NCBI GenBank assembly: GCA_035938395.1
Contig: DASZGY010000021.1
Span: 1,262 to 65,261, forward strand
From: Acidimicrobiia bacterium
GTDB lineage: Bacteria; Actinomycetota; Acidimicrobiia; IMCC26256; JACDBD01
Direction: 5' to 3'
Length of the DNA: 64,000 nucleotides
The position numbers and the translations under genes were made by a program. Each line of letters opens with the position of its first letter. Position 1 is the first letter of the stretch. The notes under the pieces are model-generated. The model was given only the letters and a program-made list of their open reading frames with translations, was not told the DNA's origin and searched no databases. Shown piece after piece: positions 14,674 to 60,000 of this stretch.

Positions 14674-14686
14674 CAAAGCCCTTCCT

Positions 14687-14742
14687 GTCGCCGTCGCGAG
14701 CTCCGGCTTCGCGGCGACGGTCGGCGAAGCCGCCGCCGCGCG
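14687..14742 (-). repeat. Copy 1 of the hairpin+box element (5' leader of the Cys4 small-protein gene)
   Basis: Minus-strand read: cgcGCGGCGGCGGCttcGCCGaCCGTCGCCGCgaaGCCGGAGCTCGCGACGGCGAC, then aGGAAGGGctttgATG. TACGTT (-10-like) lies at 14748..14743, directly upstream. Confidence 0.9.
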
Positions 14743-21492: not shown

Positions 21493-23034
21493 ATGGACCA
21501 GGTGCGGATCTTCGACACGACGCTGCGGGACGGCGAGCAGTCGCCCGGCATCTCGCTGGACGTGGGCGAGAAGCTCGAGATCGCCGAGCAGCTGACGCGC
21601 CTCGGAACCGACATCATCGAGGCGGGGTTCCCGATCGCGAGCCAGGGCGACTTCGACGCCGTCGAGGCCATCGCCAAGGGTGTGCGCGGGTCGACCATCG
21701 CCGCCCTGTCGCGCACGGGCTTCAAGGACGTCGACCGGGCGTGGGAAGCGGTTCGGCACGCCGAGCGCCCGCGCATCCACGTCTTCATCGCGACGTCCCC
21801 GATCCACATGAAGAAGAAGCTTCGCATGACCGAGGACCAGGTCAAGGACGAAGCGGCGGCAGGTGTCGCACGCGCGAAGGGCTACTGCGACGACGTCGAG
21901 TTCTCGCCCGAGGACGGCAGCCGGTCGGACCAAGACTTCATGTGTGAGGTGTGCCAGATCGCCGTCGACAACGGCGCGACGACGATCAATATCCCCGACA
22001 CCGTCGGGTTCGGCGTGCCCGAGGAGTTCGCCGAGCTCATCTCGTACGTGCTCGCCCGCGTCCGGGGCGACTACGTCGTGTCCACGCACTGCCACAACGA
22101 CCTCGGCCTGGCCGTCGCGAACTCGCTCGCCGGCGTGCGGGCAGGGGCTCGCCAGGTCGAATGCGCCATCAACGGGCTCGGGGAGCGCGCCGGCAACGCC
22201 GCCCTCGAGGAGATCGTGATGGCGATCAAGACGCGGAGCGACTACTTCGGTCACCTCGACGTGAACGTGCGCACCGAGGAGCTGGCGCGCACGTCGCGCA
22301 TCGTGTCGCGGCTCACCGGCTATCCCGTCCAGTACAACAAGGCCGTCGTCGGCCGGAACGCATTCGCGCACGAGGCCGGCATCCACCAGCACGGCGTCCT
22401 CGAGGATCCGGAGACATACGAGATCATGGACGCCAACGCGGTGGGACAGGAGGCGGCGCAGATCGTCCTGGGCAAGCACTCGGGCCGGCATGCGTTCGCC
22501 GACTCCCTGGGGAAGATGGGCATCAAGATCCAGGGCGACGCGCTGAACGCCGCGTTCACCCGGTTCAAGGAGCTCGCCGACCGCAAGGTGCAGATCACCG
22601 AGGCCGACATCGAGGCGATCGTGGCCGAGGAGCTCGGCACCGGGTACGTGCACCGGTTCGACCTCGTCGACCTCACGCTGTCGGGCGGCATGTCGTCGAA
22701 GCCGACGGCCAAGGTCGTGGTGGCGAACGGCGACGGCAAGATCGACGCCGAGGGTTCCGGCAACGGGATGATCGACGCCGCCATCGCCGCTCTCGCCGCG
22801 GCCACGGGCGTCGAGGGCCGGCTCACCGACTTCCAGGTGCACGCCGTCACCGGCGGCGGCGACGCGCTCGGCGACGTCGTCGTCCAGATGGAGGCGGACG
22901 GCTTCAAGGTGTCCGGACGCGGCGTGTCGACCGACGTGGTCGAGGCCTCGGCCCGGGCCTACCTGAACGCCGTCAACCGGATCGTGCGTCTGCGCGAGCG
23001 AGGCGAGGAACGCGAGATCGAGATCGGCCCGTGA
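21493..23034 (+). CDS. leuA: 2-isopropylmalate synthase
   Basis: IFDTTLRDGEQSPG, HCHNDLGLAVANSLAG, and a C-terminal LeuA dimerisation/regulatory domain. 513 aa. Confidence 0.9.
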   Translation: MDQVRIFDTTLRDGEQSPGISLDVGEKLEIAEQLTRLGTDIIEAGFPIASQGDFDAVEAIAKGVRGSTIAALSRTGFKDVDRAWEAVRHAERPRIHVFIATSPIHMKKKLRMTEDQVKDEAAAGVARAKGYCDDVEFSPEDGSRSDQDFMCEVCQIAVDNGATTINIPDTVGFGVPEEFAELISYVLARVRGDYVVSTHCHNDLGLAVANSLAGVRAGARQVECAINGLGERAGNAALEEIVMAIKTRSDYFGHLDVNVRTEELARTSRIVSRLTGYPVQYNKAVVGRNAFAHEAGIHQHGVLEDPETYEIMDANAVGQEAAQIVLGKHSGRHAFADSLGKMGIKIQGDALNAAFTRFKELADRKVQITEADIEAIVAEELGTGYVHRFDLVDLTLSGGMSSKPTAKVVVANGDGKIDAEGSGNGMIDAAIAALAAATGVEGRLTDFQVHAVTGGGDALGDVVVQMEADGFKVSGRGVSTDVVEASARAYLNAVNRIVRLRERGEEREIEIGP

Positions 23035-27482: not shown

Positions 27483-27500
27483 GAACCGCCGTATCGCGCG

Positions 27501-27553
27501 ACGACGGCGGCTTGGCCGCCGTCGTGGCAATAGCGGAGCTTGCGACGGCGACA
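27501..27553 (+). repeat. Copy D of the hairpin+box element (5' leader of hyuA)
   Basis: ACGACGGCGGC-ttg-GCCGCCGTCGT (11-bp stem), then ggcaatagcGGAGCTTGCGACGGCGACA. GTG 27570 lies 17 nt after the box. Confidence 0.9.
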
Positions 27554-35937: not shown

Positions 35938-37519
35938 CGTTCCGAGCCGAGTCGAGATCTACGACACCACGCTGCGCGACGGAGCGCAGCTCGAAGGCAT
36001 CTCGCTCACCGTCGACGACAAGCTTCGCATCGCCGAGCAGCTCGACTGGCTGGGCGTCCATTACATCGAGGCGGGCTGGCCCGGCTCCAATCCCAAGGAC
36101 GACGAGGCCTTTCGCCGGATCCCCCACGAGCTGAAGCTCGGGACGAGCAAGGTCGTCGCGTTCGGTTCGACGCGGCGCGTGAAGGGGAAGGTCGACTCCG
36201 ACGACACCTTGCGGCACCTCCTCGAGGCGAACACCGAGGCCGTGTGCATCGTCGGCAAGTCGTGGGACTACCACATCACCGAGGCACTCCAGACCACGCT
36301 CGACGAGGGCGCGGCGATGGTCGCCGACTCGGTGGAGTTCCTGCGGGCCAACGGCCGCCAGGTGCTCTTCGACGCCGAGCACTTCTTCGACGGCTACCGC
36401 AGCAACCCGGAGTTCGCGCTGCGTGTCCTCGAGGGCGCGGCCCAGGCGGGCGCGTCGCACCTCGTGCTGTGCGACACGAACGGCGGGACGCTGCCGCACG
36501 ACGTCGAGCGCGTCGTGCGCGAGGTCGTCGCCTACTTCGGCGGCGACGTCGCCGTCGCCGTGCACCTCCACGACGACGCCGGCACCGGGGTCGCCAACGC
36601 GCTGGCCGGTGTACGCGGCGGTGCCACCCAGGTGCAAGGGACGATCAACGGGTACGGCGAGCGGACAGGGAACTGCAACCTCACCGCGATCATCCCGAAC
36701 CTCACGCTGAAGATGGGGATCGAGACCATCCCGCCCGACCGGCTCGAGCGCCTCACGCCCGTCGCCCATCACGTGGCCGAGCTCGTGAACATGGCGCTGA
36801 ACGCGCAAGCCGCCTACGTGGGCACGTCGGCGTTCGCGCACAAGGGCGGCATCCACGCCAGCGCCATCGCCCGGAAGCCCGACGCGTACGAGCACGTGCG
36901 CCCCGAGCTGGTCGGCAACCGCACACACGTCGTCGTGTCGGAGCTCGCCGGGCGCAGCAACCTCGCGATGAAGGCAAAGGAGCTCGGCATCGAGCTCGAC
37001 GGGCCCCAGCTCAGCGAGATGGTCGACACGCTGAAGCAGCTCGAGCACGAGGGGTACCACTTCGAGGTGGCTGACGGGTCGCTGGAGCTCCTCATGCGGC
37101 ACGCGACCGGGTGGCGACAGGACTGGTTCCACGTCGAGGAATGGGAAGTGATCGTCGAGGACGCCCGCGACGACGAGCGCCTGTCGACGCAGGCGATCGT
37201 CCGCGGCCGCGCCGACGGCGACCCGTTCCACGAGATCGCGACGGGCAACGGCCCCGTGAACGCGCTCGACGCCGCCCTGCGCAAGGCCATCGCGACGCGC
37301 TACCCGGAGCTCGATCGGATCCATCTCACCGACTACAAGGTGCGGGTGCTCGACACGCACAAGGGCACCGGCGCCGTCACCAGGGTGCTCGTCGACAGCA
37401 CCGACGGCGAGGAGACGTGGACGACGATCGGGGTGGGGGAGAACATCATCGAGGCGTCGTGGCAGGCGCTCGAGGACTCGCTCGTGTACGGGTTGCTTCG
37501 AGCCCAACTGCGCGGCTAG
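35924..37519 (+). CDS. cimA: Citramalate synthase (LeuA paralogue of the CimA type)
   Basis: VEIYDTTLRDGAQLEGISLTVDDKLRIAEQLDWLGVHYIEAGWPGSNPKDDEAF matches the CimA-type N-terminus. ATG 35924 overlaps the ilvE 3' end by 14 nt. Confidence 0.75.
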   Translation: MPENDVPSRVEIYDTTLRDGAQLEGISLTVDDKLRIAEQLDWLGVHYIEAGWPGSNPKDDEAFRRIPHELKLGTSKVVAFGSTRRVKGKVDSDDTLRHLLEANTEAVCIVGKSWDYHITEALQTTLDEGAAMVADSVEFLRANGRQVLFDAEHFFDGYRSNPEFALRVLEGAAQAGASHLVLCDTNGGTLPHDVERVVREVVAYFGGDVAVAVHLHDDAGTGVANALAGVRGGATQVQGTINGYGERTGNCNLTAIIPNLTLKMGIETIPPDRLERLTPVAHHVAELVNMALNAQAAYVGTSAFAHKGGIHASAIARKPDAYEHVRPELVGNRTHVVVSELAGRSNLAMKAKELGIELDGPQLSEMVDTLKQLEHEGYHFEVADGSLELLMRHATGWRQDWFHVEEWEVIVEDARDDERLSTQAIVRGRADGDPFHEIATGNGPVNALDAALRKAIATRYPELDRIHLTDYKVRVLDTHKGTGAVTRVLVDSTDGEETWTTIGVGENIIEASWQALEDSLVYGLLRAQLRG

Positions 37520-40755: not shown

Positions 40756-41423
40756 CGGGCTGGAAGCTTGTCCGGCGCGTCGGCCTCGTCGTGCTCCTCG
40801 CCGCGCTCCTCTACTACGTCGTCACCTTCGTGCAGGTCTGGTGGGCCGCCCGTCAGGACGACACCCGCCGCTCGCAGGCGATCGTCGTGCTCGGCGCCGC
40901 GCAGTACAACGGCCGGCCCTCGCCGGTGTTCAAGGCGAGGCTCGACCACGCCGCCTCGCTGTACCACGACCGTGTCGCGCCCTTGATCGTCGTGACCGGC
41001 GGCAAGCAGACCGGCGACATGTTCACGGAGGCCACATCGGGCGCGAACTACCTCCACGACAAGGGCATCCCCGACAGTGCGATCCTGCGCGAGACCACGA
41101 GTCACACGTCCTGGGAGTCACTGTCGGCCGCCGCTCGCGTGCTGCGGCACCGGAGCGAGAAGCAGGTGGTGCTCGTCTCGGACCCGTTCCACGCACTGCG
41201 CATCCGCTCGATCGCGAACGAGCTCGGGCTGGACGCCGTGACGTCCCCGACACGGACGAGCCCGATCTCCGGTCTGGAGGAGTGGCGTCGGTTCATGAGC
41301 GAGGCGCTCCGCGTGGCAGCCGGTCGGATCGTCGGGTTCGGACGGCTCGCCCGGGGCACGAACCGGGTAGGGAGGCTCGTGCCCGGACTCGGTACCATGA
41401 CGCTTCCTTCGGGGGTGGTGTAA
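40752..41423 (+). CDS. YdcF/DUF218 family membrane-anchored protein
   Basis: TM segment LVVLLAALLYYVVTFVQVWW, then IVVLGAAQYNGRPSPVFKARLDHA. GTG 40752 overlaps the gltX stop. The 3' end overlaps tRNA-Gln by 15 nt. Confidence 0.7.
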   Translation: MTGWKLVRRVGLVVLLAALLYYVVTFVQVWWAARQDDTRRSQAIVVLGAAQYNGRPSPVFKARLDHAASLYHDRVAPLIVVTGGKQTGDMFTEATSGANYLHDKGIPDSAILRETTSHTSWESLSAAARVLRHRSEKQVVLVSDPFHALRIRSIANELGLDAVTSPTRTSPISGLEEWRRFMSEALRVAAGRIVGFGRLARGTNRVGRLVPGLGTMTLPSGVV

Positions 41424-41480
41424 TCGGCAACACAACAGGTTCTGGTCCTGTCGTTGGGGGTTCGAGTCCTCCCCCCCGAG
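41409..41480 (+). tRNA. tRNA-Gln (anticodon CTG)
   Basis: Cloverleaf folded by hand: acceptor TCGGGGG/CCCCCGA, D stem GTGT/ACAC, anticodon stem ACAGG/CCTGT with loop TTCTGGT, and T arm GGGGG-TTCGAGT-CCTCC. Confidence 0.9.
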
Positions 41481-41498
41481 CCCGGAAGAAACGGCCCC

Positions 41499-41571
41499 GG
41501 CCCCGTCGTCTAGTGGCCTAGGACGCCGCCCTCTCAAGGCGGAAGCGGCGGTTCGAATCCGCTCGGGGCTG
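41499..41571 (+). tRNA. tRNA-Glu (anticodon CTC)
   Basis: Acceptor GGCCCCG/CGGGGCT, anticodon stem CCGCC/GGCGG with loop CTCTCAA, and T arm GGCGG-TTCGAAT-CCGCT. Confidence 0.9.
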
Positions 41572-41577
41572 CAATGC

Positions 41578-42436: not shown

Positions 42437-42889
42437 GTGGTGACCGTGCCTCCGGCGAAGAGACGTACAGCACGGAAATCAGCTAGGAAGACAGCACGGA
42501 AGCCGGCGAAGCGCCGCACAACGACGCGTCGCCGGACGACACGCAAGTCGACGGCACGGAAGCCGGCGAAGCGGCGGCGTAAGGCAGCTGCGGCCAAGCC
42601 GGTCAAGCGCCGTCGTCGCAAGGCCTCGGCGAAGAAGGCGCCCGCAAAGCGTCGTCGTCGTAAGGCCACGGCGAAGAAGGCGCCCGCAAAGCGTCGTCGT
42701 CGCAAGGCTGCGGCGAAGAAGGCGCCCGCCAAGCGTCGTCGTCGCAAGGCGGCGGGCGCGGCGAAGCCGGTCAAGCGGCGTCGTCGTAAGGCTGCCGGTA
42801 CTGCGAAGCCCGTCAAGCGGCGTCGTCGCAAGGCTGCGGCGAGCAAGACGGCAAAGCGGCGTCCGGCGAAGAGGCGGGCCCGCCGGTAA
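42437..42889 (+). CDS. Lys/Arg/Ala-rich histone-H1-like repeat protein (equivalent to the C-terminal tail of actinobacterial HupB/HupS)
   Basis: AKKAPAKRRRRKA repeats. Same reading frame as hup, separated from it by the single TAG plus 18 sense codons. Start uncertain (GTG 42437/42440/42446). Confidence 0.6.
   Translation: MVTVPPAKRRTARKSARKTARKPAKRRTTTRRRTTRKSTARKPAKRRRKAAAAKPVKRRRRKASAKKAPAKRRRRKATAKKAPAKRRRRKAAAKKAPAKRRRRKAAGAAKPVKRRRRKAAGTAKPVKRRRRKAAASKTAKRRPAKRRARR
42593..42846 (+). repeat. Tandem 42-45-bp coding repeats (about 6 units) within the basic-tail ORF
   Basis: Units such as gcgaagaaggcgcccgcaaagcgtcgtcgtcgtaaggccacg recur with few changes, encoding A(K)KAPAKRRRRKAx. Confidence 0.85.
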
Positions 42890-44259: not shown

Positions 44260-44318
44260 TCACGACTCCGCGACGCACGCCGAAGGTCGAAACGCATGCG
44301 AATGCGTATGCTACCGGG

Positions 44319-44365
44319 CGGCGACGTCGGCTCTGCCGACGGTCGCCGGAGCTTGCGACGGCGAC
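44319..44365 (+). repeat. Copy E of the hairpin+box element (5' leader of plsC-gpsA), short variant
   Basis: cGGCGACgTCGGCtctGCCGAcgGTCGCCGGAGCTTGCGACGGCGAC, then AGGGAGAGactTTG. TATGCT (-10-like) at 44307-44312. Confidence 0.9.
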
Positions 44366-44376
44366 AGGGAGAGACT

Positions 44377-50253: not shown

Positions 50254-50682
50254 ATGCGGGTGGTGCTCGGGTCGGACGAGAAGACCGGGCTGACCGACGC
50301 CGTCCGGGACGACCTGGAGCAGCGCGGCCACGACGTCGTGCTGGTGGGTCCGCCGGGCGGCGAGCCCATCGAATGGGCCGAGGTCGGCGAGCGCGTCGGC
50401 GAGCTCGTCGCCAAGGGCGACGTCGACACGGGGGTCCTGTTCTGCTGGACCGGCACGGGCGCGTCGATCGCCGCGAACAAGGTGCCGGGCGTGCGCGCCG
50501 CGTTGTGCACCGACGCCGCCACCGCCGCCGGCGCCCGGAAATGGAACGACGCCAACGTGCTCGTCATGGGGCTTCGGCTCACGAGCCCCGTAGTGGCCCG
50601 CGAGCTCCTCGACGCGTGGTTCGCAACCGAGCCGGACCCCGGCGAGGCCGACAACATCGCCCGGCTGGAGAGCCGTCGGTAA
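50254..50682 (+). CDS. rpiB: Ribose-5-phosphate isomerase B
   Basis: RpiB/LacAB family pattern LFCWTGTGASIAANKVPGVRAAL. 142 aa. Confidence 0.85.
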   Translation: MRVVLGSDEKTGLTDAVRDDLEQRGHDVVLVGPPGGEPIEWAEVGERVGELVAKGDVDTGVLFCWTGTGASIAANKVPGVRAALCTDAATAAGARKWNDANVLVMGLRLTSPVVARELLDAWFATEPDPGEADNIARLESRR

Positions 50683-50690
50683 GCTCCCGC

Positions 50691-50746
50691 CGCGGCGACG
50701 GCGGCTTTGCCGCCCGTCGCCGCAAAGCCGGAGCTTGCGACGGCGA
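50691..50746 (+). repeat. Copy A of the hairpin+box element (5' leader of the GYD gene)
   Basis: cGCGGCGACGGCGGCtttGCCGcCCGTCGCCGCaaaGCCGGAGCTTGCGACGGCGA, then gAAGGGaaaccGTG. TAAGCT (-10-like, includes the rpiB stop) at 50680-50685. Confidence 0.9.
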
Positions 50747-50757
50747 GAAGGGAAACC

Positions 50758-51051
50758 GTGCCGACCTACGCGATGCTCACGACACTGGGGCCCGATGGGT
50801 GGGCGACCGTCCGCGAGAACCCCGAGCGCATCCGGGAGGTCACGCGCGAGGTCGAGGGGATGGGCCTGACGGTCATCGCCCAGTACGCCCTCATGGGCCA
50901 GTACGACTTCCTCAACGTGATCGAGGCGCCCGACGAGGCGACGATGGCCCGGGCCGCGATCATGCTGGCGGCGCGGGGCACGATGCGGACCACCACGCTC
51001 CAGGCGATCTCCGTCGAAGAGCTGATCCAGAGCTTGAAGATCGATAGTTAG
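50758..51051 (+). CDS. GYD domain protein
   Basis: (M)PTYAMLTTLGPDGWATV...GQYDFLNVIEAPDE is the typical GYD family pattern. Start at GTG 50758 rather than the track start 50707, which reads through the repeat element. Confidence 0.8.
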   Translation: MPTYAMLTTLGPDGWATVRENPERIREVTREVEGMGLTVIAQYALMGQYDFLNVIEAPDEATMARAAIMLAARGTMRTTTLQAISVEELIQSLKIDS

Positions 51052-51061
51052 CGGATCGCGA

Positions 51062-51265
51062 CTACGCGATCCACCACATCGAGCGCTTCTTCTCCTCGCG
51101 CAGCTCGTCGTCGACGAACAGCGCGGGGAGTACCGATCCGTCGGAACGACGCTTCAGCTTGTAGCGGGCGCAGTCGCCCTCGTCGACGATCTCGGCGACC
51201 TCGAACCCACGTGACCACCTGTCGTCGAAGCGTGAGCGCACTTCGACGCGGGTGCCTTGCTCCAT
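51062..51265 (-). CDS. Hypothetical small protein (67 aa)
   Basis: MEQGTRVEVRSRFDDRWSRGFEVAEIV... Coding-like, no motif recognised. Confidence 0.4.
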   Translation of the reverse strand: MEQGTRVEVRSRFDDRWSRGFEVAEIVDEGDCARYKLKRRSDGSVLPALFVDDELREEKKRSMWWIA

Positions 51266-51347
51266 CGTCGGCGAGGGTAACAGGCACCTGACCAGGAGCG
51301 GAAGAGACGTGCACTTCGGCGTCGCAGGGGCTTGGTATGTTCCGGCG

Positions 51348-52067
51348 ATGGTGGCATCGGCGTCTGCTCCCCCGGTGCCGGCGGCAGGCGTCGGCGCAAC
51401 GCCCGCGTCGCGTACGCGGACTCCGACCCTCCGTCTCGAGCGGCGCTGCTGGGGCGCCGGCGAGCCGGTCGTCGTCGGCATCGACGAGGTCGGCCGGGGC
51501 GCGTGGGCGGGCCCGGTCACCGTGGCAGCGCTCGTCCCCCCGCCGGACCATCTCCGCGGCGTACGCGACTCCAAGGAGTTGACACGCGACGAACGCGAGA
51601 TCGTGGCAGCCCGCGTGCGCGGGTGGGCGGTCGCGATCGGCGTCGGCCATGCGTCGTACGAGGAGTGTGATGCCCTGGGCATGACCGCGGCGTTGCGAGC
51701 TGCCGGGCGCCGCGCGCTCGGGCAGCTCTCCGCACTCGGATACGAGCCCGATCGCATCATCCTCGACGGCAACTACGACTACCTGGCATTGGGTGCGCGC
51801 GTCACGACCGTCATTCGAGGCGACTCGACGTCGCTTTCGGTCGCCGCTGCGTCGTGCGTCGCCAAGGTCACGCGCGACGCGCTCATGCGCGAGGAAGCCG
51901 AGCACTACCCGGCGTACGACTTCGAGTCGAACGTCGGGTACCCGGCGCCGATCCACAAGTCGGCACTGGCGTGGTACGGGCCGAGCGCGATCCACCGGCG
52001 CTCGTGGATCTTCATGGACGGGTTGTGCTGGCGGGGTGTGCCGCCGGCACCCGGACGTCTGTTCTGA
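51348..52067 (+). CDS. rnhB: Ribonuclease HII
   Basis: GIDEVGRGAWAGPV and DSKELT motifs. ATG 51348 lies 6 nt after TATGTT, which suggests a leaderless transcript. Confidence 0.85.
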   Translation: MVASASAPPVPAAGVGATPASRTRTPTLRLERRCWGAGEPVVVGIDEVGRGAWAGPVTVAALVPPPDHLRGVRDSKELTRDEREIVAARVRGWAVAIGVGHASYEECDALGMTAALRAAGRRALGQLSALGYEPDRIILDGNYDYLALGARVTTVIRGDSTSLSVAAASCVAKVTRDALMREEAEHYPAYDFESNVGYPAPIHKSALAWYGPSAIHRRSWIFMDGLCWRGVPPAPGRLF

Positions 52068-52081
52068 GCAGGGGGGCGAAC

Positions 52082-52651
52082 ATGGCATCCGATTTGCCGG
52101 ATCTCCACGACCGTGCGCTGGCGGGAACACGCCGGTACGTCGCCGGTGTCGGCGGCGACCAGTGGACGCACTCGTCGCCGTGCGAGGGCTGGGACGTGCG
52201 CGAGCTCGTGAACCACATCGTGAGCGGGAACTTCTGGGCGGGAGAGCTGGCGCGGGGAAAGACGATCGACGAGGTCGGCGACCGTCTCGACGGCGACATC
52301 CTCGGGGTTGACCCGACGGCGACGTACGAGGAGTCGGCCCGCGCTGCGAGCGAGGCGTTCCATGCGCCGGGAGCGATGGAGGCGCCCTGCGCGGTGTCGT
52401 ACGGGCCGGTCCCGGGCGAGGTGTACCTGGGGCACCGGTTCATCGACGTCGTGGTCCACGGCTGGGATGTCGCCAAGGCGACGGGCCAGGACACGACGCT
52501 CGATCCCGAGCTCGTGGAGGCGTGCTTCACGGTCATCGAGCCCCAGAAGGAGATGCTGCTCGGCAGCGGGGTGTTCGGGACCGACCACGAGGCGGAGCCC
52601 GGCGCGGACCGGCAGACCGCGTTGCTCGAGTTGCTGGGTCGCACTCCGTAA
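52082..52651 (+). CDS. DinB/mycothiol-maleylpyruvate-isomerase N-terminal domain family protein
   Basis: WTHSSPCEGWDVRELVNHIV and C-terminal LLELLGRTP resemble the actinobacterial TIGR03086-type family (recalled, not searched). Confidence 0.65.
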   Translation: MASDLPDLHDRALAGTRRYVAGVGGDQWTHSSPCEGWDVRELVNHIVSGNFWAGELARGKTIDEVGDRLDGDILGVDPTATYEESARAASEAFHAPGAMEAPCAVSYGPVPGEVYLGHRFIDVVVHGWDVAKATGQDTTLDPELVEACFTVIEPQKEMLLGSGVFGTDHEAEPGADRQTALLELLGRTP

Positions 52652-52669
52652 TCTCGTAACCTCACGCCC

Positions 52670-52724
52670 GCGGGAATGGCGGTTTTGCCGACCGTTCCCG
52701 CGAAGCCGGAGCCTGCGACGGCGC
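52670..52724 (+). repeat. Copy B of the hairpin+box element (5' leader of the Nfu-like gene)
   Basis: GCGGGAATGGCGGTtttGCCGaCCGTTCCCGCgaaGCCGGAGCCTGCGACGGCGC, then AAGGAGagagATG. TAACCT at 52657-52662 and TAATCT at 52649-52654 lie upstream. Confidence 0.9.
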
Positions 52725-52734
52725 AAGGAGAGAG

Positions 52735-53100
52735 ATGGGCCAGCCGATCACCGTCACCGCCCGACCCGGCGCGTCGCCGTCGATCCGGTTCTTCGAGCTC
52801 AACCGGTCGCTCACGGGCATGGAGATCGAGCGGTACCACGCCGTCGACGACACCGAGGGCGACCGGCCGCCCGACGTGCTGGCCCGGCGGCTGTTCGACC
52901 TCGGCGCCACCCAGGTGACGATCTATTCGAGCGCGGTCACTGTGCAGGCGCCGCCCGAGCGTTGGCCCGAGCTCGAGCCCAAGGTCACCGAGACGATGGA
53001 GCACCTCTTCGGCTACTACGGCGACGACGCCGGCTGGTCACCCGACGCGCTCGAGGCCCTCGGCATCGAGGTCAAGCCCCCGCCCGAACCGCAGAAGTAG
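52735..53100 (+). CDS. Small protein resembling the Nfu/NifU N-terminal scaffold domain
   Basis: 121 aa. PSIRFFELNRSL...LFDLGATQVTIYSSAVTVQ is reminiscent of the Nfu_N fold. Weak assignment. Confidence 0.5.
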   Translation: MGQPITVTARPGASPSIRFFELNRSLTGMEIERYHAVDDTEGDRPPDVLARRLFDLGATQVTIYSSAVTVQAPPERWPELEPKVTETMEHLFGYYGDDAGWSPDALEALGIEVKPPPEPQK

Positions 53101-53146
53101 GCGCTCGCGCTTCCTGCTCTTCCTGGGTCTGCGGTCGACCCCGCGC

Positions 53147-53836
53147 TTGCCGATCGAACACACGTTCGCTTATGGTCGGCATGTGGCCCTGGCCGCACTT
53201 CCCCGGCGGGACGAGCGATCCCGCGAGCACCTTGACAACACAGCCCGGCACGCCCGGCCTGTGGTGCTGGCCGGCGAGCGGGTCCTGGCCGTGCCCGGCC
53301 CGCTCGGCGCGCTGCTCCCCGGCGGCGCCGTCCAGCGGGGGACGGTGGTGGCGGTCGACGGCGACCCCGGAGCGGGAGCCACGTCGGTCGCTTTCCAGCT
53401 GGCGGCGGCGGCCACGGCCGCCGGCGAATGGGCCGCCGCGATCGAGCTCGACGCCAGCCTGGGCGGGCTGGCGGCGGGAGAGGCCGGGGTCGAGCTCGAA
53501 CGGTTCGCCGTCGTCCGGCGGGTGCCCCCCGCCCGCTGGGCTGCGGTGGTTGCCGCACTGCTCGACGGGGTCAGCGTCGTGCTCGCCGAGGTGCCGGCAT
53601 ACGCACGGGTGGGCGATGCGAGGCGGCTGCTCGCCCGTGCCCGCGAGCGCGGCGCGGTGCTGGTGGCGATGGGACCGTGGCCGGCCGAGGCCGCGCTCCG
53701 CCTGCGGGCCGGAGGCTCGGTCTGGCGCGGCCTGGATGCCGGCGCGGGCGCGTTCGCCGGACGCGACCAGCGCGTGCACGTCGACGGCCGCGGCGCCGCC
53801 GCCCGTGATCACGTCGCGCTCGTCGAAGCCGGCTGA
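53147..53836 (+). CDS. imuA: ImuA'-like SOS mutasome accessory protein (RecA-fold remnant)
   Basis: Sits directly upstream of imuB behind a LexA box. VVAVDGDPGAGATSVAFQLAAAAT is a degenerate Walker-A-like segment. The true start is probably GTG 53183, 6 nt after TATGGT. Confidence 0.65.
   Translation: MPIEHTFAYGRHVALAALPRRDERSREHLDNTARHARPVVLAGERVLAVPGPLGALLPGGAVQRGTVVAVDGDPGAGATSVAFQLAAAATAAGEWAAAIELDASLGGLAAGEAGVELERFAVVRRVPPARWAAVVAALLDGVSVVLAEVPAYARVGDARRLLARARERGAVLVAMGPWPAEAALRLRAGGSVWRGLDAGAGAFAGRDQRVHVDGRGAAARDHVALVEAG
53154..53169 (+). promoter_or_regulatory. LexA (SOS) box upstream of imuA'
   Basis: TCGAAC-ACAC-GTTCGC, one mismatch to the actinobacterial consensus TCGAAC-N4-GTTCGA. 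TATGGT (-10-like) follows at 53171-53176. Confidence 0.75.
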
Positions 53837-53845
53837 CGGCACGGG

Positions 53846-55510
53846 GTGGCTGACGGGATGGCCGAGCGCACCGCCTGCCTGTGGTGCCCCGAATGGCCGG
53901 TGGTCGCGCGGCGCGCCCGTGATCCAACGTTGTGCGACGTGCCGGTCGCGGTCGTAGAGCGCGGCGAGCGCGGGCTCCTCGTGATCGCGGCGTCGACCGA
54001 AGCGGTCGCAGAAGGCGTGACGGCGGGCCTGCGCCGGCGCGAAGCGGAGGCGCGTTGCCCCGGCCTGGTCGTTGCGGAGGCCGACCCGCAGGTCGAGGCG
54101 CGCGCGTTCGAGCGCGTCGCGCGCGCGGTCGAGACGTTCACGCCCCGTTTCGTGCTGGAGGAGCCGGGCCGGGTCACGTTCCCGACGCGCGGTCCGTCGC
54201 GGTACTTCGGTGGCGACACCGCCATGGCCGTTCGATGCCTCGACGCCGTTCGCGACATCGGGATCACCGACGCGCGCGTCGGCGTCGCCGACGGGGGGTT
54301 CGCGGCCATGCTCGCGGCGCGCGCCGCCGAGCCGGGCGCGGCGTACGTCGTGCCGCCGGGGGAGTCATCCGGGTTTCTCGCCCCGTGGCCGGTCGCGGTG
54401 CTCGAGGATCCCGAACCCGGCGAAGCCGCGGAGCTGGCCGGCCTGCTCGTCCGGCTCGGCTTGCGCACGCTGGGCGCGTTCGCGGCGCTGCCCGACGGCG
54501 CCGTGCTCGGTCGCTTCGGGTCGGCCGGTGCGCGCGCACACCGGCTCGCCCGCGGCGACGACGAAGCCACCGCGTCACCGGCACCTCCACCTCCCGAGCT
54601 CATCGAGACCGCCGAGCTCGATCCTCCCGCCGTGCACGTCGAGACCGCCGCGTTCGCGGCCAAGGCGCTGGCCGAGCAGCTCATGGCACGACTCGGCACG
54701 CTCGGTCTCGCGTGCACGCGGGTGATGATCGAGGCCGAGACCGAGCGCGGTGAGCGGCTGACCCGGTGCTGGCGCCACGAGGGGGCGCTCACCCCGGCGG
54801 CGCTGGCGGCGCGCGTCCGCTGGCAGCTCGAAGGCTGGCTCACGGCGGAGGTGGACGACGACGGGTCGGTCGACGACCTCGCGACCAGCGGTCTCGTGCT
54901 GCTGCGGTTGGTGCCCGACGAGGTGCTGCCCGCCACCGGCCGCCAGCTCGGATTCTGGGGCGGCGACCCGGCGGCGGCCGACCGCGCCGGGCGCGTGCTC
55001 GCCCGGGTGCAGGGGATGCTCGGCCATCCCGCCGTGGTCACGGCCGTGCCCCAAGGCGGGCGCACGCCGGGCGAGCGGGTGCGGTGGGTGCCGTGGGGCG
55101 ATCCGCGCGAGCCGGCCCGGCTCCTCGACGCGGTCCCGGCGCCGGGCGCCAACGTTCGCGAGGTCCCACCGTGGCCGGGCGCGATCCCGGCTCCGGCGCC
55201 GGCGCGCGTCTTCGAGCCGCCGCCCCCGGCCGAGCTGCTCGACGCCGCCGGCGAGGTCGTCATCGTGTCGGGACGGGGTGACCCGTCCGCTCCGCCGGCG
55301 CGCCTGCGGTGCGCGGCCCTGCCCGGTCGCGGGGGCGAGATCGCGGCGTGGGCGGGGCCGTGGGCGCACGACGCCCGCTGGTGGGACCGGCGGGCGCGGA
55401 CGCGCCGTGCGTACTGGCAGGTGCTGGTGGCCGCGCCCGACGGCGAGCGCGTCGCGTGTCTCGTCGCCGTGACCGCCGGCCACGCCGCGCTCGAGGCGAT
55501 CTACGACTGA
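53846..55510 (+). CDS. imuB: ImuB, catalytically inactive Y-family polymerase-like protein
   Basis: N-terminal CLWCPEWPV and a Y-family-like core without the acidic catalytic triad context. 554 aa. Lies between imuA' and dnaE2. Confidence 0.8.
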   Translation: MADGMAERTACLWCPEWPVVARRARDPTLCDVPVAVVERGERGLLVIAASTEAVAEGVTAGLRRREAEARCPGLVVAEADPQVEARAFERVARAVETFTPRFVLEEPGRVTFPTRGPSRYFGGDTAMAVRCLDAVRDIGITDARVGVADGGFAAMLAARAAEPGAAYVVPPGESSGFLAPWPVAVLEDPEPGEAAELAGLLVRLGLRTLGAFAALPDGAVLGRFGSAGARAHRLARGDDEATASPAPPPPELIETAELDPPAVHVETAAFAAKALAEQLMARLGTLGLACTRVMIEAETERGERLTRCWRHEGALTPAALAARVRWQLEGWLTAEVDDDGSVDDLATSGLVLLRLVPDEVLPATGRQLGFWGGDPAAADRAGRVLARVQGMLGHPAVVTAVPQGGRTPGERVRWVPWGDPREPARLLDAVPAPGANVREVPPWPGAIPAPAPARVFEPPPPAELLDAAGEVVIVSGRGDPSAPPARLRCAALPGRGGEIAAWAGPWAHDARWWDRRARTRRAYWQVLVAAPDGERVACLVAVTAGHAALEAIYD

Positions 55511-55869
55511 GGCGCTCGAGGCACGTCGATCGCGACCAGGAGCGACTCCCGCCGCCAGCGCTCGAGGCTTCCGCTGTAGCGCGGCTGGTACTTCTCGAAG
55601 ACGAGCCCGCGCCCCCGCTCCGACTCGTCGCCGTCCTCGACGACCCGCGCCGTCGCGTCGTAGGTCGTGTCGCGGAGCCGCACCGTGACGGCCGGCTCGG
55701 CTCGCAGGTTTCGTACCCAGTCAGACCGCTCGCCGCCGCCCGACAGCAGGTACAGCGTGCGCCCCTCGAGCGCGAACCAGATCTCGATCTCGTGCGGACG
55801 CCCGGAGACGCGCCCACTCGTCGTGAGGTAGCAGAAGTCGTCGTCGGTGGCCGAGAGGAGCCCGTCCAT
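55501..55869 (-). CDS. Deazaflavin(F420)-dependent nitroreductase family (DDN-like split beta-barrel)
   Basis: YLTTSGRVSGRPHEIEIWFALEGRTLYLLSGGGERSDWVRNLRAEPAVTV matches the F420H2-dependent quinone/nitro reductase pattern. 122 aa. Confidence 0.65.
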   Translation of the reverse strand: MDGLLSATDDDFCYLTTSGRVSGRPHEIEIWFALEGRTLYLLSGGGERSDWVRNLRAEPAVTVRLRDTTYDATARVVEDGDESERGRGLVFEKYQPRYSGSLERWRRESLLVAIDVPRAPQS

Positions 55870-55915
55870 GACGAGGCAAGTCTCGCATCCGGTCCCGACG
55901 CGCGAAGCTCGCGCC

Positions 55916-56365
55916 ATGGCAACGATCGAGTACGTCCGTGACCTCGTTCGCCGCGACAACGGCCTCGCTGTTGTCGTGACCCAACGCGGCGACGGTTCGC
56001 CGCAGGCTTCGATCGCCAACGCCGGCGTCCTAGCGCACCCGGTGAGCGGCGATGCCGTCGTCGGGCTCGTCGTGCGGGGCGACACCCGCAAGCACGCCAA
56101 CCTGCGGCGCCGGCCCCGGGCGACGATCGTGTTCCGCGTCGGCTGGGAATGGGTCGCCGTCGAAGGCCCCGTCGACCTCGCCGGGCCGGACGATCCCCTC
56201 GACGGGCTGGACGCCGGCCGTGTCCCGCAGGTGCTCCGAGACGTGTTCAGCGCCGCCGGCGGCACGCACGACGACTGGGACGAGTACGACCGCGTGATGG
56301 CGGGCGAGAGACGCCTCGCCGTGCTCGTGCAACCCGAGCGCGTGTATTCCAACGCCGGGACCTGA
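55916..56365 (+). CDS. PPOX-class (pyridoxamine 5'-phosphate oxidase-like) probable F420-dependent enzyme
   Basis: LAVVVTQRGDGSPQASI...RKHANLRRRPRATIVF is the split-barrel PPOX pattern. ATG 55916. Confidence 0.6.
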   Translation: MATIEYVRDLVRRDNGLAVVVTQRGDGSPQASIANAGVLAHPVSGDAVVGLVVRGDTRKHANLRRRPRATIVFRVGWEWVAVEGPVDLAGPDDPLDGLDAGRVPQVLRDVFSAAGGTHDDWDEYDRVMAGERRLAVLVQPERVYSNAGT

Positions 56366-56405
56366 AGGCGGCGATGAGTTTCGCCGCGGGGGAGGTCCAG
56401 AGACC

Positions 56406-56945
56406 ATGACCGTGAGGGAGCCACGCTCGGAGCGGAACCTCGACGGCTACGACGCCCCGCCCATCGCGTGGGCGAGAGTGCGTGAACGTCTCGACCAGGG
56501 TGTGACCCAACCCCCGGGGACCGGTGGACCGGGCCGGCACACGTACTGGCTGGCGACGACGAACCCGGACGGCAGTCCGCACGTCATGCCGCTCGGGGTC
56601 TTCTGGGTCGACGGTGGCTTCTTCTTCAACGCCGGTCCCGGCACGCGCAAGGCGAAGAACCTGGCCGCCAACCCGCGCTGCGTCATCTCGGTGGCGACGG
56701 ACCAGTTCGACCTCGTCGTGGAGGGCGAAGCCGTGAAGGTCACCGACGACGCCGAGCTCCGGCGCATCGCCGACGTGTTCGCGGCCGGGGGGTGGGAACC
56801 GACCGTGCGCGACGGCGCCCTGTATGCCGAGTTCAGCGCGCCCAGCGCCGGCCCACCGCCGTGGCACGTCTACGAGGTCACGCCGAAGACGGTGTACGCC
56901 CTGGGGACGGCCGATCCGTACGGCGCCACCCGCTTCCGCTTCTGA
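56406..56945 (+). CDS. Pyridoxamine 5'-phosphate oxidase family protein
   Basis: YWLATTNPDGSPHVMPLGVFWVDGGFFFNAGPGTRKAKNLAANPRCVIS is the split-barrel pattern. Confidence 0.6.
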   Translation: MTVREPRSERNLDGYDAPPIAWARVRERLDQGVTQPPGTGGPGRHTYWLATTNPDGSPHVMPLGVFWVDGGFFFNAGPGTRKAKNLAANPRCVISVATDQFDLVVEGEAVKVTDDAELRRIADVFAAGGWEPTVRDGALYAEFSAPSAGPPPWHVYEVTPKTVYALGTADPYGATRFRF

Positions 56946-56968
56946 GCCCGGCGGTCCCGCTGGACTGA

Positions 56969-56984
56969 TCGAACGTACGTTCGA
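56969..56984 (+). promoter_or_regulatory. LexA (SOS) box upstream of dnaE2
   Basis: TCGAAC-GTAC-GTTCGA, a perfect 16-bp palindrome identical to the actinobacterial consensus. It is immediately followed by TACGGT (-10-like, 56985-56990). Confidence 0.85.
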
Positions 56985-57000
56985 TACGGTGGCAGGCCCG

Positions 57001-57057
57001 GGTGGCGATGGCGGCTTTGCTGACCGTCGCCACAAAGCCGGAGCTTGCGACGGCGAC
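57001..57057 (+). repeat. Copy C of the hairpin+box element (5' leader of dnaE2)
   Basis: gGTGGCGATGGCGGCtttGCTGaCCGTCGCCACaaaGCCGGAGCTTGCGACGGCGAC, then aatcagagcGGAGtaGGGGccgcccGTG. Confidence 0.9.
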
Positions 57058-57082
57058 AATCAGAGCGGAGTAGGGGCCGCCC

Positions 57083-60000
57083 GTGACCGATCACGGCGAG
57101 CGTGGCTACGCGGAGCTGCACTGCCACACGAACTTCTCGTTCCTCGACGGGGCCAGCCATCCCGAGGAGCTGGCCGACGAGGCCGCCCGTCTCGGCCTGG
57201 CCGCCCTGGCGGTCACGGACCACGACGGCCTGTACGGCGTGGTGCGCTTCGCCCTCGCCGCCCGCGCCACCGGGCTCCCCACCGTGTTCGGCGCCGAGCT
57301 CACCCTCGATGCCCCCCGCACGCCGCCGAACGGCTACGCCGACCCGCCCGGTGAGCACCTCGTGGTGCTCGCGGCGGGACCGGTCGGGTACGCCCGCCTG
57401 GCCCGGGCGGTGAGCGCGGCGCAGCTGGCGGGGGAGAAGGGCGCGCCCCGCCTCGATCTCGGTGCGCTCGCCGACGCCGCCCGCGCGCCGGTTCACCTGC
57501 GCCGCTCCGCGGCGAGTGCCAACGACGCGTGGTTCGTGCTCACCGGGTGCCGCAAGGGCGCGGTCACGCGCGCGCTCCTCGACGACGGCCCTGCCGCAGC
57601 CCGGCGCGCCCTCGATCGGCTCGTCGCCGCCTTCGGGCGCGACCGCGTGCTGGTCGAGCTGTGGGACCACGGCGACCCGCTCGACCGGCACCGCAACGAC
57701 GCGCTGGCCGAGGTGGCGGCGTCGGCGTCCGTCGACGTGATCGCCTCCAACAACGTGCATTACGCCACGCCCGGACGGCGGCCGCTCGCCACCGCGCTCG
57801 CCGCCGTCCGTGCCCGGCGCTCGCTCGACGAGATCGACGGCTGGCTTCCCGCGGCGGCGTTCGCGCACCTGCGCAGCGCGGCCGAGCAGCAACGCCGGTT
57901 CGCCCGCTGGCCCGGCGCGGTCGAGCGCACGCTCGACGTCGCGGCGGCGTGCGCGTTCGACCTCAGCCTCGCCGCGCCCGAGCTGCCCGACCACGACGTG
58001 CCGCCCGGTCACACCGAGATGAGCTGGCTGCGCGAGCTCACCGCGCGCGGCGCCGCCATCCGCTACCCGCCGAGCCACGAGCAGCACGAGCAGGCGAGGC
58101 GCCAGATCGCCTACGAGCTCGACGTGATCGAGGAGCTCGGCTTCCCCGGCTACTTCCTCGTGCTCGTCGACATCGTCGATTTCTGCCACCGCCACGACAT
58201 CTACTGCCAGGGTCGGGGCAGCGCCGCCAACAGCGCGGTCTGCTACGCGCTCGGCGTCACCAAGGCCGACGCCGTCGCGCTCGGCCTGCTCTTCGAGCGG
58301 TTCCTGTCGCCCGAGCGTGACGGACCGCCCGACATCGACCTCGACATCGAGCACCAGCGCCGCGAGGAGGCGATCCAGTACGTCTACGACAAGTACGGGC
58401 GCGACCGCGCCGCCCAGGTCGCCAACGTGATCACGTACCGGCCCAAGAGCGCGCTGCGCGAGATGGCCAAGGCCGCCGGCCTCTCACCCGGCCACGCCGA
58501 CGGGCTCACGAAGTGGATCGACCGGTGGGGGAGGGACGTCGGCGCGTTCGAGAGCGTGAAGTCCGAGGGCCCGCCGGTGCCGGCGCTCGTCCTCGACCTC
58601 GCCGGGCAGGTGCTCGACTTTCCCCGCCACCTCGGCATCCACTCCGGCGGCATGGTCATGGCCGACCGGCCGCTGGTGGAGTTCTGCCCGATCGAGTGGG
58701 CCCGCATGGAGGACCGGTCCGTGCTCCAGTGGGACAAGGACGACTGCGCGGCCGCCGGGCTGGTGAAGTTCGACCTGCTCGGCCTGGGCATGCTCACGAT
58801 GCTGCACCTGGCGGTCGACCTGGTTCGTGAGCACGAGGGCACCGAAGTCGATCTGGCCACGATCCCGCAGGAGCCCGCGGTGTACGACCTGCTGTGCGCG
58901 GCCGACACCGTCGGCGTGTTCCAGGTCGAGAGCCGGGCCCAGATGGCCACGCTGCCCCGGCTGCGCCCGCGCACGTTCTACGACCTCGTCATCGAGGTCG
59001 CGCTCATTCGCCCCGGCCCGATCCAGGGCGGCTCGGTGCACCCGTACCTGCGGCGCCGCAACGGCCAGGAGCCCGTCACCTTCCCGCACCCCATGCTCGA
59101 GGAGTGCCTGAAGAAGACCCTCGGCGTGCCGCTGTTCCAGGAACAGCTCATGCAGATGGCGATCGACATCGCCGGCTTCAGCCCCGGCGAGTCCGACCAG
59201 CTGCGCCAGGCCATGGGCTCGAAGCGTTCCCACACCCGCATGGCGGTCATGCGCGAGCGGCTGCTCGCCGGCATGGCCGAGCGCGGCATCACCGGCCCGA
59301 CCGCCGAGGAGATCGCGACCAAGTTCGAGGCGTTCGCCGACTTCGGCTTCCCCGAGAGCCATTCGGTGAGCTTCGCCTACCTCGTGTACTCGAGCTCGTG
59401 GATCAAGCTGCACTACCCGGCCGAGTTCGCGTGCGCGCTGCTCAACGCGCAGCCCATGGGCTTCTACTCGCCGCACTCCATCGTGCGTGACGCCATGCAT
59501 CACGGCGTCGAGGTGCTCGGACCCGACGTGAACGCGTCGCGCAAGGACTGCACGCTCGAGCCGCGCACCGACGGCGCCGGCCCGGTCGGTCAACCGCGCC
59601 CGGGCTGGCACGCCGACCCGTCGATGCGTGCCGTGCGCATGGGCTTGCGCTACGTCCGCGGCCTCGCCGACGCGCTGCTCGACCGCATCGACGCCGAACG
59701 CGACCGCAAGCCGTTCGCGTCGCTCTCCGACTTCACCCGCCGCACCGGCGCGCCCACCGACGCCATCGAGGCGCTGGCCACCGCGGGCGCGTTCGGGTCC
59801 CTGGGCCAGACGCGCCGTAGCGCGCTGTGGGCCGCGGGGGCGCTGCGCGACGCCCGGGCCGACAAGCTGCCCGGGCTCGTCACCGGGGTCGACGCGCCGG
59901 CGCTGCCGGGCATGACCGAGGTCGAGGAGACGGCCGCCGACCTGTGGGCGACCGGCCTGACCGCCGGCCGGCACCCGACCGAGTTCGTGCGCGAGCGCCT

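Follow-up and report, generated by a model that had tools for sequence, protein, structure and literature searches.

A dispersed two-hairpin element with a Shine-Dalgarno motif upstream of start codons in soil Acidimicrobiia: a probable mobile leader cassette

A short hairpin-forming sequence precedes a GYD-domain gene in a 64-kb stretch of DNA from an Acidimicrobiia bacterium (contig DASZGY010000021.1; the whole of this stretch is called the window here) and recurs elsewhere in it. Is this element an RNA switch, an operator on DNA, or a repeat that moves? An earlier note, made from the sequence alone, had described compensated stem arms in several copies and had proposed that an invariant box on the 3' side of the hairpin duplicates its 5' arm, allowing two mutually exclusive helices or, on DNA, three protein half-sites. 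All the stem arms that it quotes (copies A, B, C, D and F) were recovered, and positions 50691-50760 read as described, copy A of the element occupying 50692-50757 on the forward strand. We have analyzed about 170 copies overall. They represent a copied unit of two hairpins and a Shine-Dalgarno motif, mostly placed in the sense orientation just upstream of start codons, and several of its sites were of the leaderless type or tightly coupled before. The unit is probably a dispersed, recently mobile leader cassette of soil Acidimicrobiia, about 65-70 nt long, which supplies a structured leader and a ribosome-binding site upstream of starts.

Copies of the element and their two hairpins

Seven copies were found in the window. 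A search for the 18-mer CCGGAGCTTGCGACGGCG, which includes the box, gave 7 matches at up to 3 mismatches where 0.75 would be expected, and a covariance model built from related copies and run with filters off returned the same seven places at 49-87 bits; the next-best score, 31 bits, belongs to the antisense of copy A, and none higher was found beyond the seven. An exact scan for the 18-mer over one genome per species gave at least 114 loci (loci are designated by L and a number throughout). Those listed are mostly from metagenome-assembled genomes of soil Acidimicrobiia or unclassified Actinomycetota, and about 15 of them are chance matches in other phyla that lack the hairpin. Metagenomes were scanned with the apex of the long hairpin, GGCGGCTTTGCCGACCG, which was chosen to avoid selection on the box. 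Of the at least 120 loci obtained, about half of the matches listed are chance occurrences without an element; the scan added about 50 true copies, in which the outer stem and the box vary freely. Over the element no Rfam family reached its gathering threshold, the sole hits in the window being two tRNAs, and in E-value mode the best matches were generic hairpins at 10-25 bits against thresholds of 45-200. The long sequence strings of the element had no match in the literature searched, where keywords returned only general work on stem-loop repeats. A phage or plasmid origin was rejected, as five 18-mer matches in viral contigs are due to chance and lack the long hairpin, and there was no plasmid match.

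As RNA, positions 50680-50760 read TAAGCTcccgcc GCGGCGACGGCGGC UUU GCCG-C-CCGUCGCCGC AAA GCCGGAG CUUG CGACGGC G AGAAGGGAAACC GUG, that is, a long hairpin (P1), a purine linker, a short hairpin (P2) and a purine-rich tail that runs up to the start codon. P1 is an imperfect palindrome of 32 nt with one bulge, a length within the 20-40 nt expected of REP elements. It has 14 base pairs, one bulged base (A in the family consensus) and a conserved apex, GGCGGC-UUU-GCCG. The compensatory changes claimed for this hairpin are borne out by larger samples. Among 58 box-selected sequences 94.8% of P1 cells pair and 5 pairs have changed on both sides, which 0 of 500 shuffles reach; in the 76-sequence alignment A2 this holds for 8 of the 14 pairs. 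When P1 and P2 are taken jointly, the 76 sequences have 15 pairs with double-sided changes, amounting to 74 such cells, and again none of 500 shuffles is as high. Conservation reaches at least 90% in the apical six pairs of P1, in its UUU loop and bulged A and in P2, while the basal eight pairs drift and compensate. P1 cells that are not Watson-Crick are far more often G·U than A·C (34 versus 7, and 27 versus 3 in the other set), an asymmetry which indicates that it is RNA of the sense strand, the strand of the downstream gene, that folds. These results support the conservation of P1 as a structure while its sequence drifts, and argue for a folded single strand.

The linker between the hairpins consists of 3-5 purines. 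P2 is 18 nt long. Its four Watson-Crick pairs are followed by tandem G·A and A·G pairs, and a G-C pair closes the CUUG tetraloop. P2 covaries independently, with all 7 pairs changed on both sides across the 76 sequences and at least 8 types of compensatory change; at pair 46-59, for example, GC occurs 61 times, CG 12 times, and AU, UA and an unpaired combination once each. In 70 of the 76 sequences the inner positions hold G·A and A·G; in 5-6 copies they have become U-A/C-G or similar. Fully Watson-Crick forms of P2 are GCCGUCG...CGACGGC, GCCGUUG...CAACGGC, GGCAUCG...CGAUGCC and GUCGUCG...CGACGAC. RNAalifold finds the apical nine pairs of P1 and five pairs of P2 unaided, and ViennaRNA gives P2 a pair probability of 0.65-0.99 in 4 of the 7 window copies, the G·A pairs being outside its energy model. 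All five copies with a fully Watson-Crick P2 (L141, L152, L186, L226 and L233) have, in the basal part of P1, an internal loop of 3x3 purines of the types GGA/GGA, GGA/GAA or GAA/GAA, which is present in only about 6 of the 70 G·A-type copies. It looks as if a G·A motif were required somewhere in the element, although these five copies could share one ancestor. Conservation of the apex of P1, its bulged A and the G·A/CUUG hairpin suggests that a factor recognises them, be it a host RNA-binding protein or a copying enzyme. A loop-linker pairing of CGGCUUUG, in the P1 loop region, with CAAAGCCG, forming a pseudoknot or an alternative fold, was considered and rejected: it shows no covariation, and changes of G46 break it.

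Some loci depart from the simple arrangement. Composite leaders (L002, L030, L042, L059, L108, L153 and L175; L050, L061 and L083 are also among the composite or P2-only loci) consist of a full copy with a variant P2 (GCCC..GGGC or GCGG..CCGC), 12-16 nt, a consensus P2 without P1, and a Shine-Dalgarno motif. In P2-only copies P1 has been lost or swapped for an unrelated hairpin, as can be seen when L050 is compared with its orthologue L031. Copies in L071 (about 4560-4760, minus strand), L099 (about 940-1120) and L033 are embedded in what appears to be another repeat, in which GACCCGAGCC... upstream is complementary to ...GCGAGCAGGGGCUCGG downstream; this apparent surrounding repeat has no Rfam match.

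Filled and empty alleles, position and orientation

Several sites that are occupied in the window are empty in relatives. At the plsC site, seven relative contigs (PlsC 85-90% identical) have a divergent cofC-plsC spacer of 36 nt with the empty allele TATGCTaccggccGTGgaaccgg (TATGCTaccggccGTG), laid out as a -10 hexamer, 7 nt and the start codon. In mycobacterial start-site maps this is the standard actinobacterial layout of a leaderless gene. The filled allele of the window reads TATGCTaccgg[GCGGCGACGUCGGCUCUGCCGACGGUCGCCGGAGCUUGCGACGGCGACAGGGAGAGACU]TTGgaaccgg, with an insert of 59 nt. The rpiB-GYD site of copy A is empty in L249 and L253-L255, where the spacer is 11 nt long (TAAGATccgccgccATG in L249); it is filled by one copy in the window and L242 and by two tandem copies in L250-L252. 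The MDMPI_N-Nfu-like site of copy B is empty in L251 (TAATCTccctgcATG), L253 and L235, and filled in the window, L249, L250 and L252. Since L249-L252 encode an identical GYD protein, the latter two sites are polymorphic within one population.

None of these three empty alleles (plsC, rpiB-GYD, Nfu) has a Shine-Dalgarno motif, and the filled alleles gain one in the purine tail. The cassette sits 2-4 nt upstream of the starts. In empty alleles the starts trail TANNNT, the actinobacterial -10 pattern, by only 6-8 nt, and some empty junctions overlap the preceding gene's stop codon. No duplication of the target is visible in the three clean filled/empty pairs; 2-4 nt of it are replaced, and the first base of the start codon often differs between the filled and the empty state (GTG to TTG, ATG to GTG). 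A candidate GATCC target-site duplication at site A in L250 was discarded, as it is absent from the window allele. At the dnaE2 site the SOS box and the -10 persist in L240, L238, L241 and L235, where a small CCCGGG...CCCGGG hairpin takes the place of the element. The acyl-CoA dehydrogenase site also differs between relatives, and an antisense copy in L238 is missing from L240. Copy density varies sharply as well: the window has 7 copies in its 64 kb, the relatives L235-L241 have 0-1 in 13-23 kb. Between orthologues the element keeps 82-100% identity, compared with 42-88% for the upstream 40 nt and 59-89% for third codon positions; as any two copies resemble the family consensus, such identity need not reflect selection. 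In L237 (862-937; DnaE2 77% identical) the rpiB-GYD spacer is also 76 nt long and of unrelated sequence, with its own TAGAAT hexamer and a GGAGC...GCUCC inverted repeat; it may be a different leader family at the same site.

The placement of the copies with respect to genes is biased, although counts of orientation and start distance are approximate, the classifier having mislabelled a few copies (the GYD copy, for example, as convergent). A co-oriented open reading frame (ORF) with high third-position GC starts no more than 45 nt downstream in 109 of the 159 usable copies. The start codon follows P2 by 11-15 nt, the modal distance, in 62 of these 109, and the tail contains a Shine-Dalgarno-like motif in 84 of the 109 sense copies. 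In 91 copies the next gene downstream points the same way as the copy, in 23 (opposed copies) the other way; between tandem genes 31 copies are sense and 12 antisense, and sites A and B are stop/start junctions. As a rule, opposed copies lie directly against the stop codon of a convergent gene or against a tRNA. In 66 of 163 copies a TANNNT hexamer ends 0-8 nt upstream of P1, peaking sharply at 4-5 nt and hardly occurring farther off. Within 0-9 nt it is found in 49 of 89 copies (55%) that have a co-oriented gene, in 3 of 23 opposed copies and in 5 of 163 (3%) in a control window. Between divergent genes the hexamer is present in 16 of 27 cases, mostly as TACNNT, a form incompatible with a stop codon. 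Between tandem genes the count is 12 of 31, of which 8 have TAG or TAA as their first three letters.

The proteins encoded downstream are unrelated: 96 of them match 136 Pfam families, with at most 3 proteins per family, and they include TrmD, SRP54-type GTPases, IlvD and transketolase. The element is not a regulon. A terminator scan of 50400-57200 found nothing, and P1 is followed by AAAG or AGAG, with no U-tract. A sigma-54 or sigma-70 promoter in the box (TTGCGA) was rejected, as the start codon can be just 21 nt away and a promoter scan found nothing. An upstream ORF from the TTG inside P2 was dismissed as well, its frame and distance to the main start varying between copies.

Table 1. The seven copies in the window and the parts of copy A (window positions; + is the forward strand)
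Feature	Positions	Strand	Remarks
TAAGCT	50680-50685	+	First three letters (TAA) end the rpiB-like gene upstream; hexamer matches the actinobacterial -10 TANNNT; ends 6 nt before P1
P1 hairpin, copy A	50692-50723	+	Minimum-free-energy and centroid folds, covariation
P1 5' arm, copy A, GCGGCGACGGCGGC	50692-50705	+	Loop UUU; 3' arm GCCG-C-CCGUCGCCGC with the bulged base at 50713
Purine linker AAA between P1 and P2, copy A	50724-50726	+	Alignments A1 and A2; AGA or AGGA in other copies
P2 hairpin, copy A, GCCG-GAG/CUUG/CGA-CGGC	50727-50744	+	Double-sided changes, RNAalifold, pair probabilities
Box of the earlier note, GCGACGGCG	50737-50745	+	Inside the P2 hairpin, 3' strand
Purine-rich tail, copy A, AGAAGGGAAACC	50746-50757	+	Shine-Dalgarno-like AAGGG/GGGA; part of the inserted unit
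GYD-domain gene behind copy A	50758-51051	+	GTG start; Pfam PF08734, E=1.9e-27
Copy B	52670-52734	+	P1 arms GCGGGAAUGG/CCGUUCCCGC, tail CAAGGAGAGAG; precedes an Nfu_N-like gene (ATG 52735); TAACCT at 52657-52662
Copy C	57002-57055	+	Within the 5' untranslated region of dnaE2 (GTG 57083); LexA SOS box 56969-56984 and TACGGT -10 56985-56990 upstream
Linker-less copy with tail ACAGGGAGAGACU	44318-44376	+	Precedes a plsC-type acyltransferase gene (TTG 44377); TATGCT -10 at 44307-44312
Copy D	27498-27550	+	No bulge, P2 5' strand one C shorter; precedes a hydantoinase A gene (GTG 27570)
Minus-strand copy with tail	14674-14742	-	Precedes a 117-aa gene (ATG 14673-14671); TACGTT directly 5', 14748-14743
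Copy F	9574-9628	+	P1 outer stem mismatched; no -10; no co-oriented gene downstream

The orthologue of copy D in L068 stands before the same gene. Copy F lies 8 nt from the stop (TCA 9637-9639) of a listed minus-strand ORF, which is a candidate ORF only, and copies of its class, with no -10 and no co-oriented downstream gene, make up about 11-20% of the total.

Other features of the window were recorded in passing. The LexA-type SOS box upstream of dnaE2, TCGAACGTACGTTCGA, is followed directly by the -10 (56969-56990 together) and is conserved in L235-L241; the syntenic loci L235 and L237 have an ImuA'-like gene (MT3502_N) and an ImuB gene (IMS) upstream. The two Rfam hits are adjacent genes for tRNA-Gln(CTG) and tRNA-Glu(CTC) at 41408-41572. 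An ORF at 42437-42889 (+) has five tandem 42-nt units (42598-42849) and encodes a very basic repeat protein rich in Lys, Arg and Ala (…AKKAPAKRRRRKA…), which resembles the tails of actinobacterial histone-like proteins. Two ORFs have an 87-nt stretch in common (21507-21593 and 35956-36042, 76% identical).

A leader cassette and its alternatives

On the gene strand the cassette is ordered as P1, purine linker, P2, and a purine tail that carries the Shine-Dalgarno motif and reaches to the start codon. The unchanged resident -10 would then drive transcription from the first bases of P1 or from within it; such a start, at or just inside P1, is predicted from the -10 ending 0-8 nt before the hairpin. 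The mRNA would gain a 5' end held in base pairs, a Shine-Dalgarno sequence and, immediately upstream of the ribosome-binding site, a second hairpin, and initiation would shift from leaderless or coupled to Shine-Dalgarno-led. The 5'-terminal hairpin could guard against 5'-end-dependent decay by RNase E or RNase J, in the manner of leaders of the ompA/aprE type, P2 could insulate the new ribosome-binding site and keep it exposed, and the conserved P1 apex and G·A motif may form a protein-binding site. The element most likely acts in cis on RNA. By analogy, it would affect mRNA stability or translation; the way in which the cassette copies and spreads is likewise something we infer.

Several points weigh against this interpretation. 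The 5' end at P1 is deduced from a -10 spacing known in mycobacteria and other actinobacteria, and some of the TANNNT matches between tandem genes are the TAA or TAG stop codon of the upstream gene. About 20% of the copies are reversed or abut the stop of a convergent gene or a tRNA, without a -10, so that a role as 5' leader cannot cover all copies. Neither a target-site duplication nor terminal inverted repeats nor a linked transposase turned up, so that the case for mobility comes only from the patterns of presence and absence. Covariation among mobile copies can reflect evolving master copies that were selected for mobility rather than for host benefit, and the high identity of orthologues could stem from gene conversion towards the family consensus. 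Host benefit and selfish spread cannot be separated.

The two-state switch of the earlier note, in which the 3' arm of P1 would pair now with the 5' arm, now with the box, and thereby alter access to the ribosome-binding site, is largely refuted here and is very improbable. The box is not invariant: CGAGGGC, CGACCGC, CAACGGC, CGATGCC and CGACGAC appear once copies are gathered without selecting for it. That it duplicates the 5' arm is true of copy A, which has GCGACGGCG at 50695-50703 and again in the box, 42 nt apart, but as a rule this is a property of the consensus only, GCGACGG standing at both places in 51 of 166 copies; the 9-mer is, moreover, common in this genome (26 occurrences versus 13.6 expected). 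The consensus box can indeed form 7 pairs with the 3' arm CCGUCGC, and all 7 are possible in 60 of 153 copies, but this helix does not covary. In alignment A2, 82.5% of its cells pair, compared with 82.8% after shuffling; it has one double-change cell where 1.4 are expected, and its covariation score (0.055 versus 0.068) is reached by 499 of 500 shuffles. The box is in fact the 3' strand of the separate hairpin P2 and not a free partner of the P1 3' arm. Changes in it are compensated within P2, as when C59 to G is accompanied by G46 to C, breaking the proposed alternative pair in 15 sequences. Partition functions computed for each leader give the alternative helix a Boltzmann probability of 0.000 in 7 of the 7 full-length window copies; it is the predicted fold (-16 to -19 kcal/mol) only after the 5' arm has been removed. 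P1 is also transcribed first and is far more stable, and the downstream genes have no common function that would point to one ligand. Read as double-stranded DNA, the same repeats would be three half-sites, GCGACGG, CCGTCGC and GCGACGG, for a global transcription factor bound just downstream of promoters. Their spacing in the consensus, about 21 bp or two helical turns, and the location of the element at +1 to +55 relative to many promoters would suit such an operator. However, the half-sites in the P1 arms vary freely provided that they stay complementary, having changed in more than one third of the copies and always in this way, and the third covaries with the strand 5' of itself, not as a repeat of the first. 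Recognition of a duplex would not produce mismatches that are strand-asymmetric, with G·U far above A·C. We therefore disfavour an operator, giving it a chance slighter even than that of the switch.

Of another kind is the proposal that the element is a selfish hairpin repeat of the REP/REPIN, MITE (miniature inverted-repeat transposable element) or IS200/IS605-derived type, whose hairpins are needed as single-stranded DNA for a transposase acting in trans and which has no function for the host; position and orientation would merely show where a compact genome tolerates insertion. Polymorphism within a population, local tandem duplications, decayed copies (P2-only or with partial P1) and copies beside convergent stop codons and a tRNA all speak for it. 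G·T pairs are tolerated in single-stranded DNA hairpins too, and reverse-complement CUCC motifs could mask Shine-Dalgarno sequences, in which case purifying selection would explain the orientation bias. Against it, orientation tracks the downstream gene and not one strand, even to head-to-head copies for divergent genes (L110), the Shine-Dalgarno motif looks functional and is correctly spaced, and the P1 apex, bulge and P2 are held constant while the basal stem drifts. Copies have no GTAG-type REP head and are not arranged as inverted pairs, and no true copy turned up in viral contigs or plasmids. On balance we think a purely selfish repeat rather unlikely. A host protein that binds the P1 apex and bulged A together with the tandem G·A/CUUG P2, and so co-regulates hundreds of housekeeping mRNAs, would account for the concentration of conservation in just these parts, the basal stem needing only to pair; for the purine (GGA/GAA) internal loops of the five copies with a fully Watson-Crick P2; and for the fixed distance of P2 from the start codon. 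No candidate protein was identified, the conserved parts are equally explicable as the recognition site of a mobilising enzyme, and the great difference in copy density between the window and its close relatives L235-L241 is awkward for an essential regulon, all of which makes such a global binding site improbable.

The leader cassette may be taken one step further, as a transposable ribosome-binding-site leader that targets specifically leaderless promoter-start junctions, perhaps DNA melted in the open complex, and switches genes singly from leaderless or coupled to Shine-Dalgarno-led initiation, their mRNAs gaining a protected 5' end; we offer this tentatively. If true, a selfish repeat would be changing how hundreds of housekeeping genes in this lineage start translation, and probably how they are controlled after transcription. 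Leaderless versus Shine-Dalgarno-led initiation is usually seen as a slowly evolving property of a gene, and here near-identical strains differ at single genes, with a start 7 nt behind the -10 in one and after a structured leader of 60-70 nt with a ribosome-binding site in the other. Were the cassette active as proposed, it would be a natural, portable part for 5' untranslated regions (a 5' hairpin, an insulating hairpin and a ribosome-binding site), a direct route to studying the origin of leaders and, in uncultured soil Acidimicrobiia, a marker for very recent changes in the genome. It also matters for annotation, since gene callers often extend ORFs through the element. The GYD homologues P0122, P0128, P0135, P0160 and P0165 are called at 113-158 aa versus 97; these long calls probably come from extension of the ORF upstream through the stop-free, GC-rich element.

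Comparison with known systems

The element lacks the defining features of REP elements, MITEs, riboswitches and terminators. P1 begins with GCGG and not with a GTAG head, and head-to-head pairs are rare, L110 being the only example among the genome loci listed. The ends of the element (GCGG... and the purine tail) are not inverted repeats, and no duplication accompanies it in the three filled/empty pairs. With the REP/BIME/REPIN, SMAG, ERIC, Correia and BOX/RUP families it nevertheless has much in common: these are high-copy intergenic hairpin repeats with presence/absence polymorphism, which are transcribed with their neighbours and are known to alter mRNA stability or to supply expression signals. 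In contrast to them, the cassette lacks a GTAG head and terminal inverted repeats, is not organised in inverted pairs and shows no TA duplication; it contains a ribosome-binding site, and about 80% of its copies stand in sense orientation directly before a start codon and not on the 3' side of genes. The IS200/IS605-derived PATEs resemble it in being short hairpin elements that insert without target-site duplication. They would be expected to target single-stranded DNA, and the insertions of the cassette 2-11 nt after the -10 would lie in or near the region melted in the open complex. The cassette differs from them in its much shorter length, its two unlike hairpins and the lack of a conserved 4-5-nt target motif at its left end. 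No TnpA was found near the copies, though no systematic search for it was made.

In architecture the leaders of E. coli ompA (hp1/hp2) and of B. subtilis aprE and ermC are similar, with a hairpin at the extreme 5' end, structure near the ribosome-binding site, a Shine-Dalgarno sequence and the start. This match is the basis for the stabiliser mechanism proposed above. Those leaders belong to single genes, whereas the cassette is a portable unit before many unrelated genes, whose mRNAs it would stabilise by analogy. The MIRUs (mycobacterial interspersed repetitive units), described by Supply et al. in 1997, reportedly contain small ORFs that overlap the neighbouring stop and start codons and provide translational coupling. 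Like the cassette they are short actinobacterial intergenic repeats (40-100 bp) that share the orientation of the flanking genes, are inserted where the stop and start codons of closely packed genes meet, and are occasionally duplicated in tandem; they affect translation of the downstream cistron, as the cassette is proposed to do. Unlike it, they are not defined by covarying hairpins, while the cassette has two, carries its own Shine-Dalgarno motif and mostly stands directly behind a -10; its variable distance from the start argues against the fixed frame of an internal small ORF of the MIRU type. MIRUs and the cassette are set side by side here by description, not by sequence. The closest known elements are thus the MIRUs in niche and orientation, and the REP, ERIC, Correia and BOX repeats as structured interspersed sequences that affect expression.

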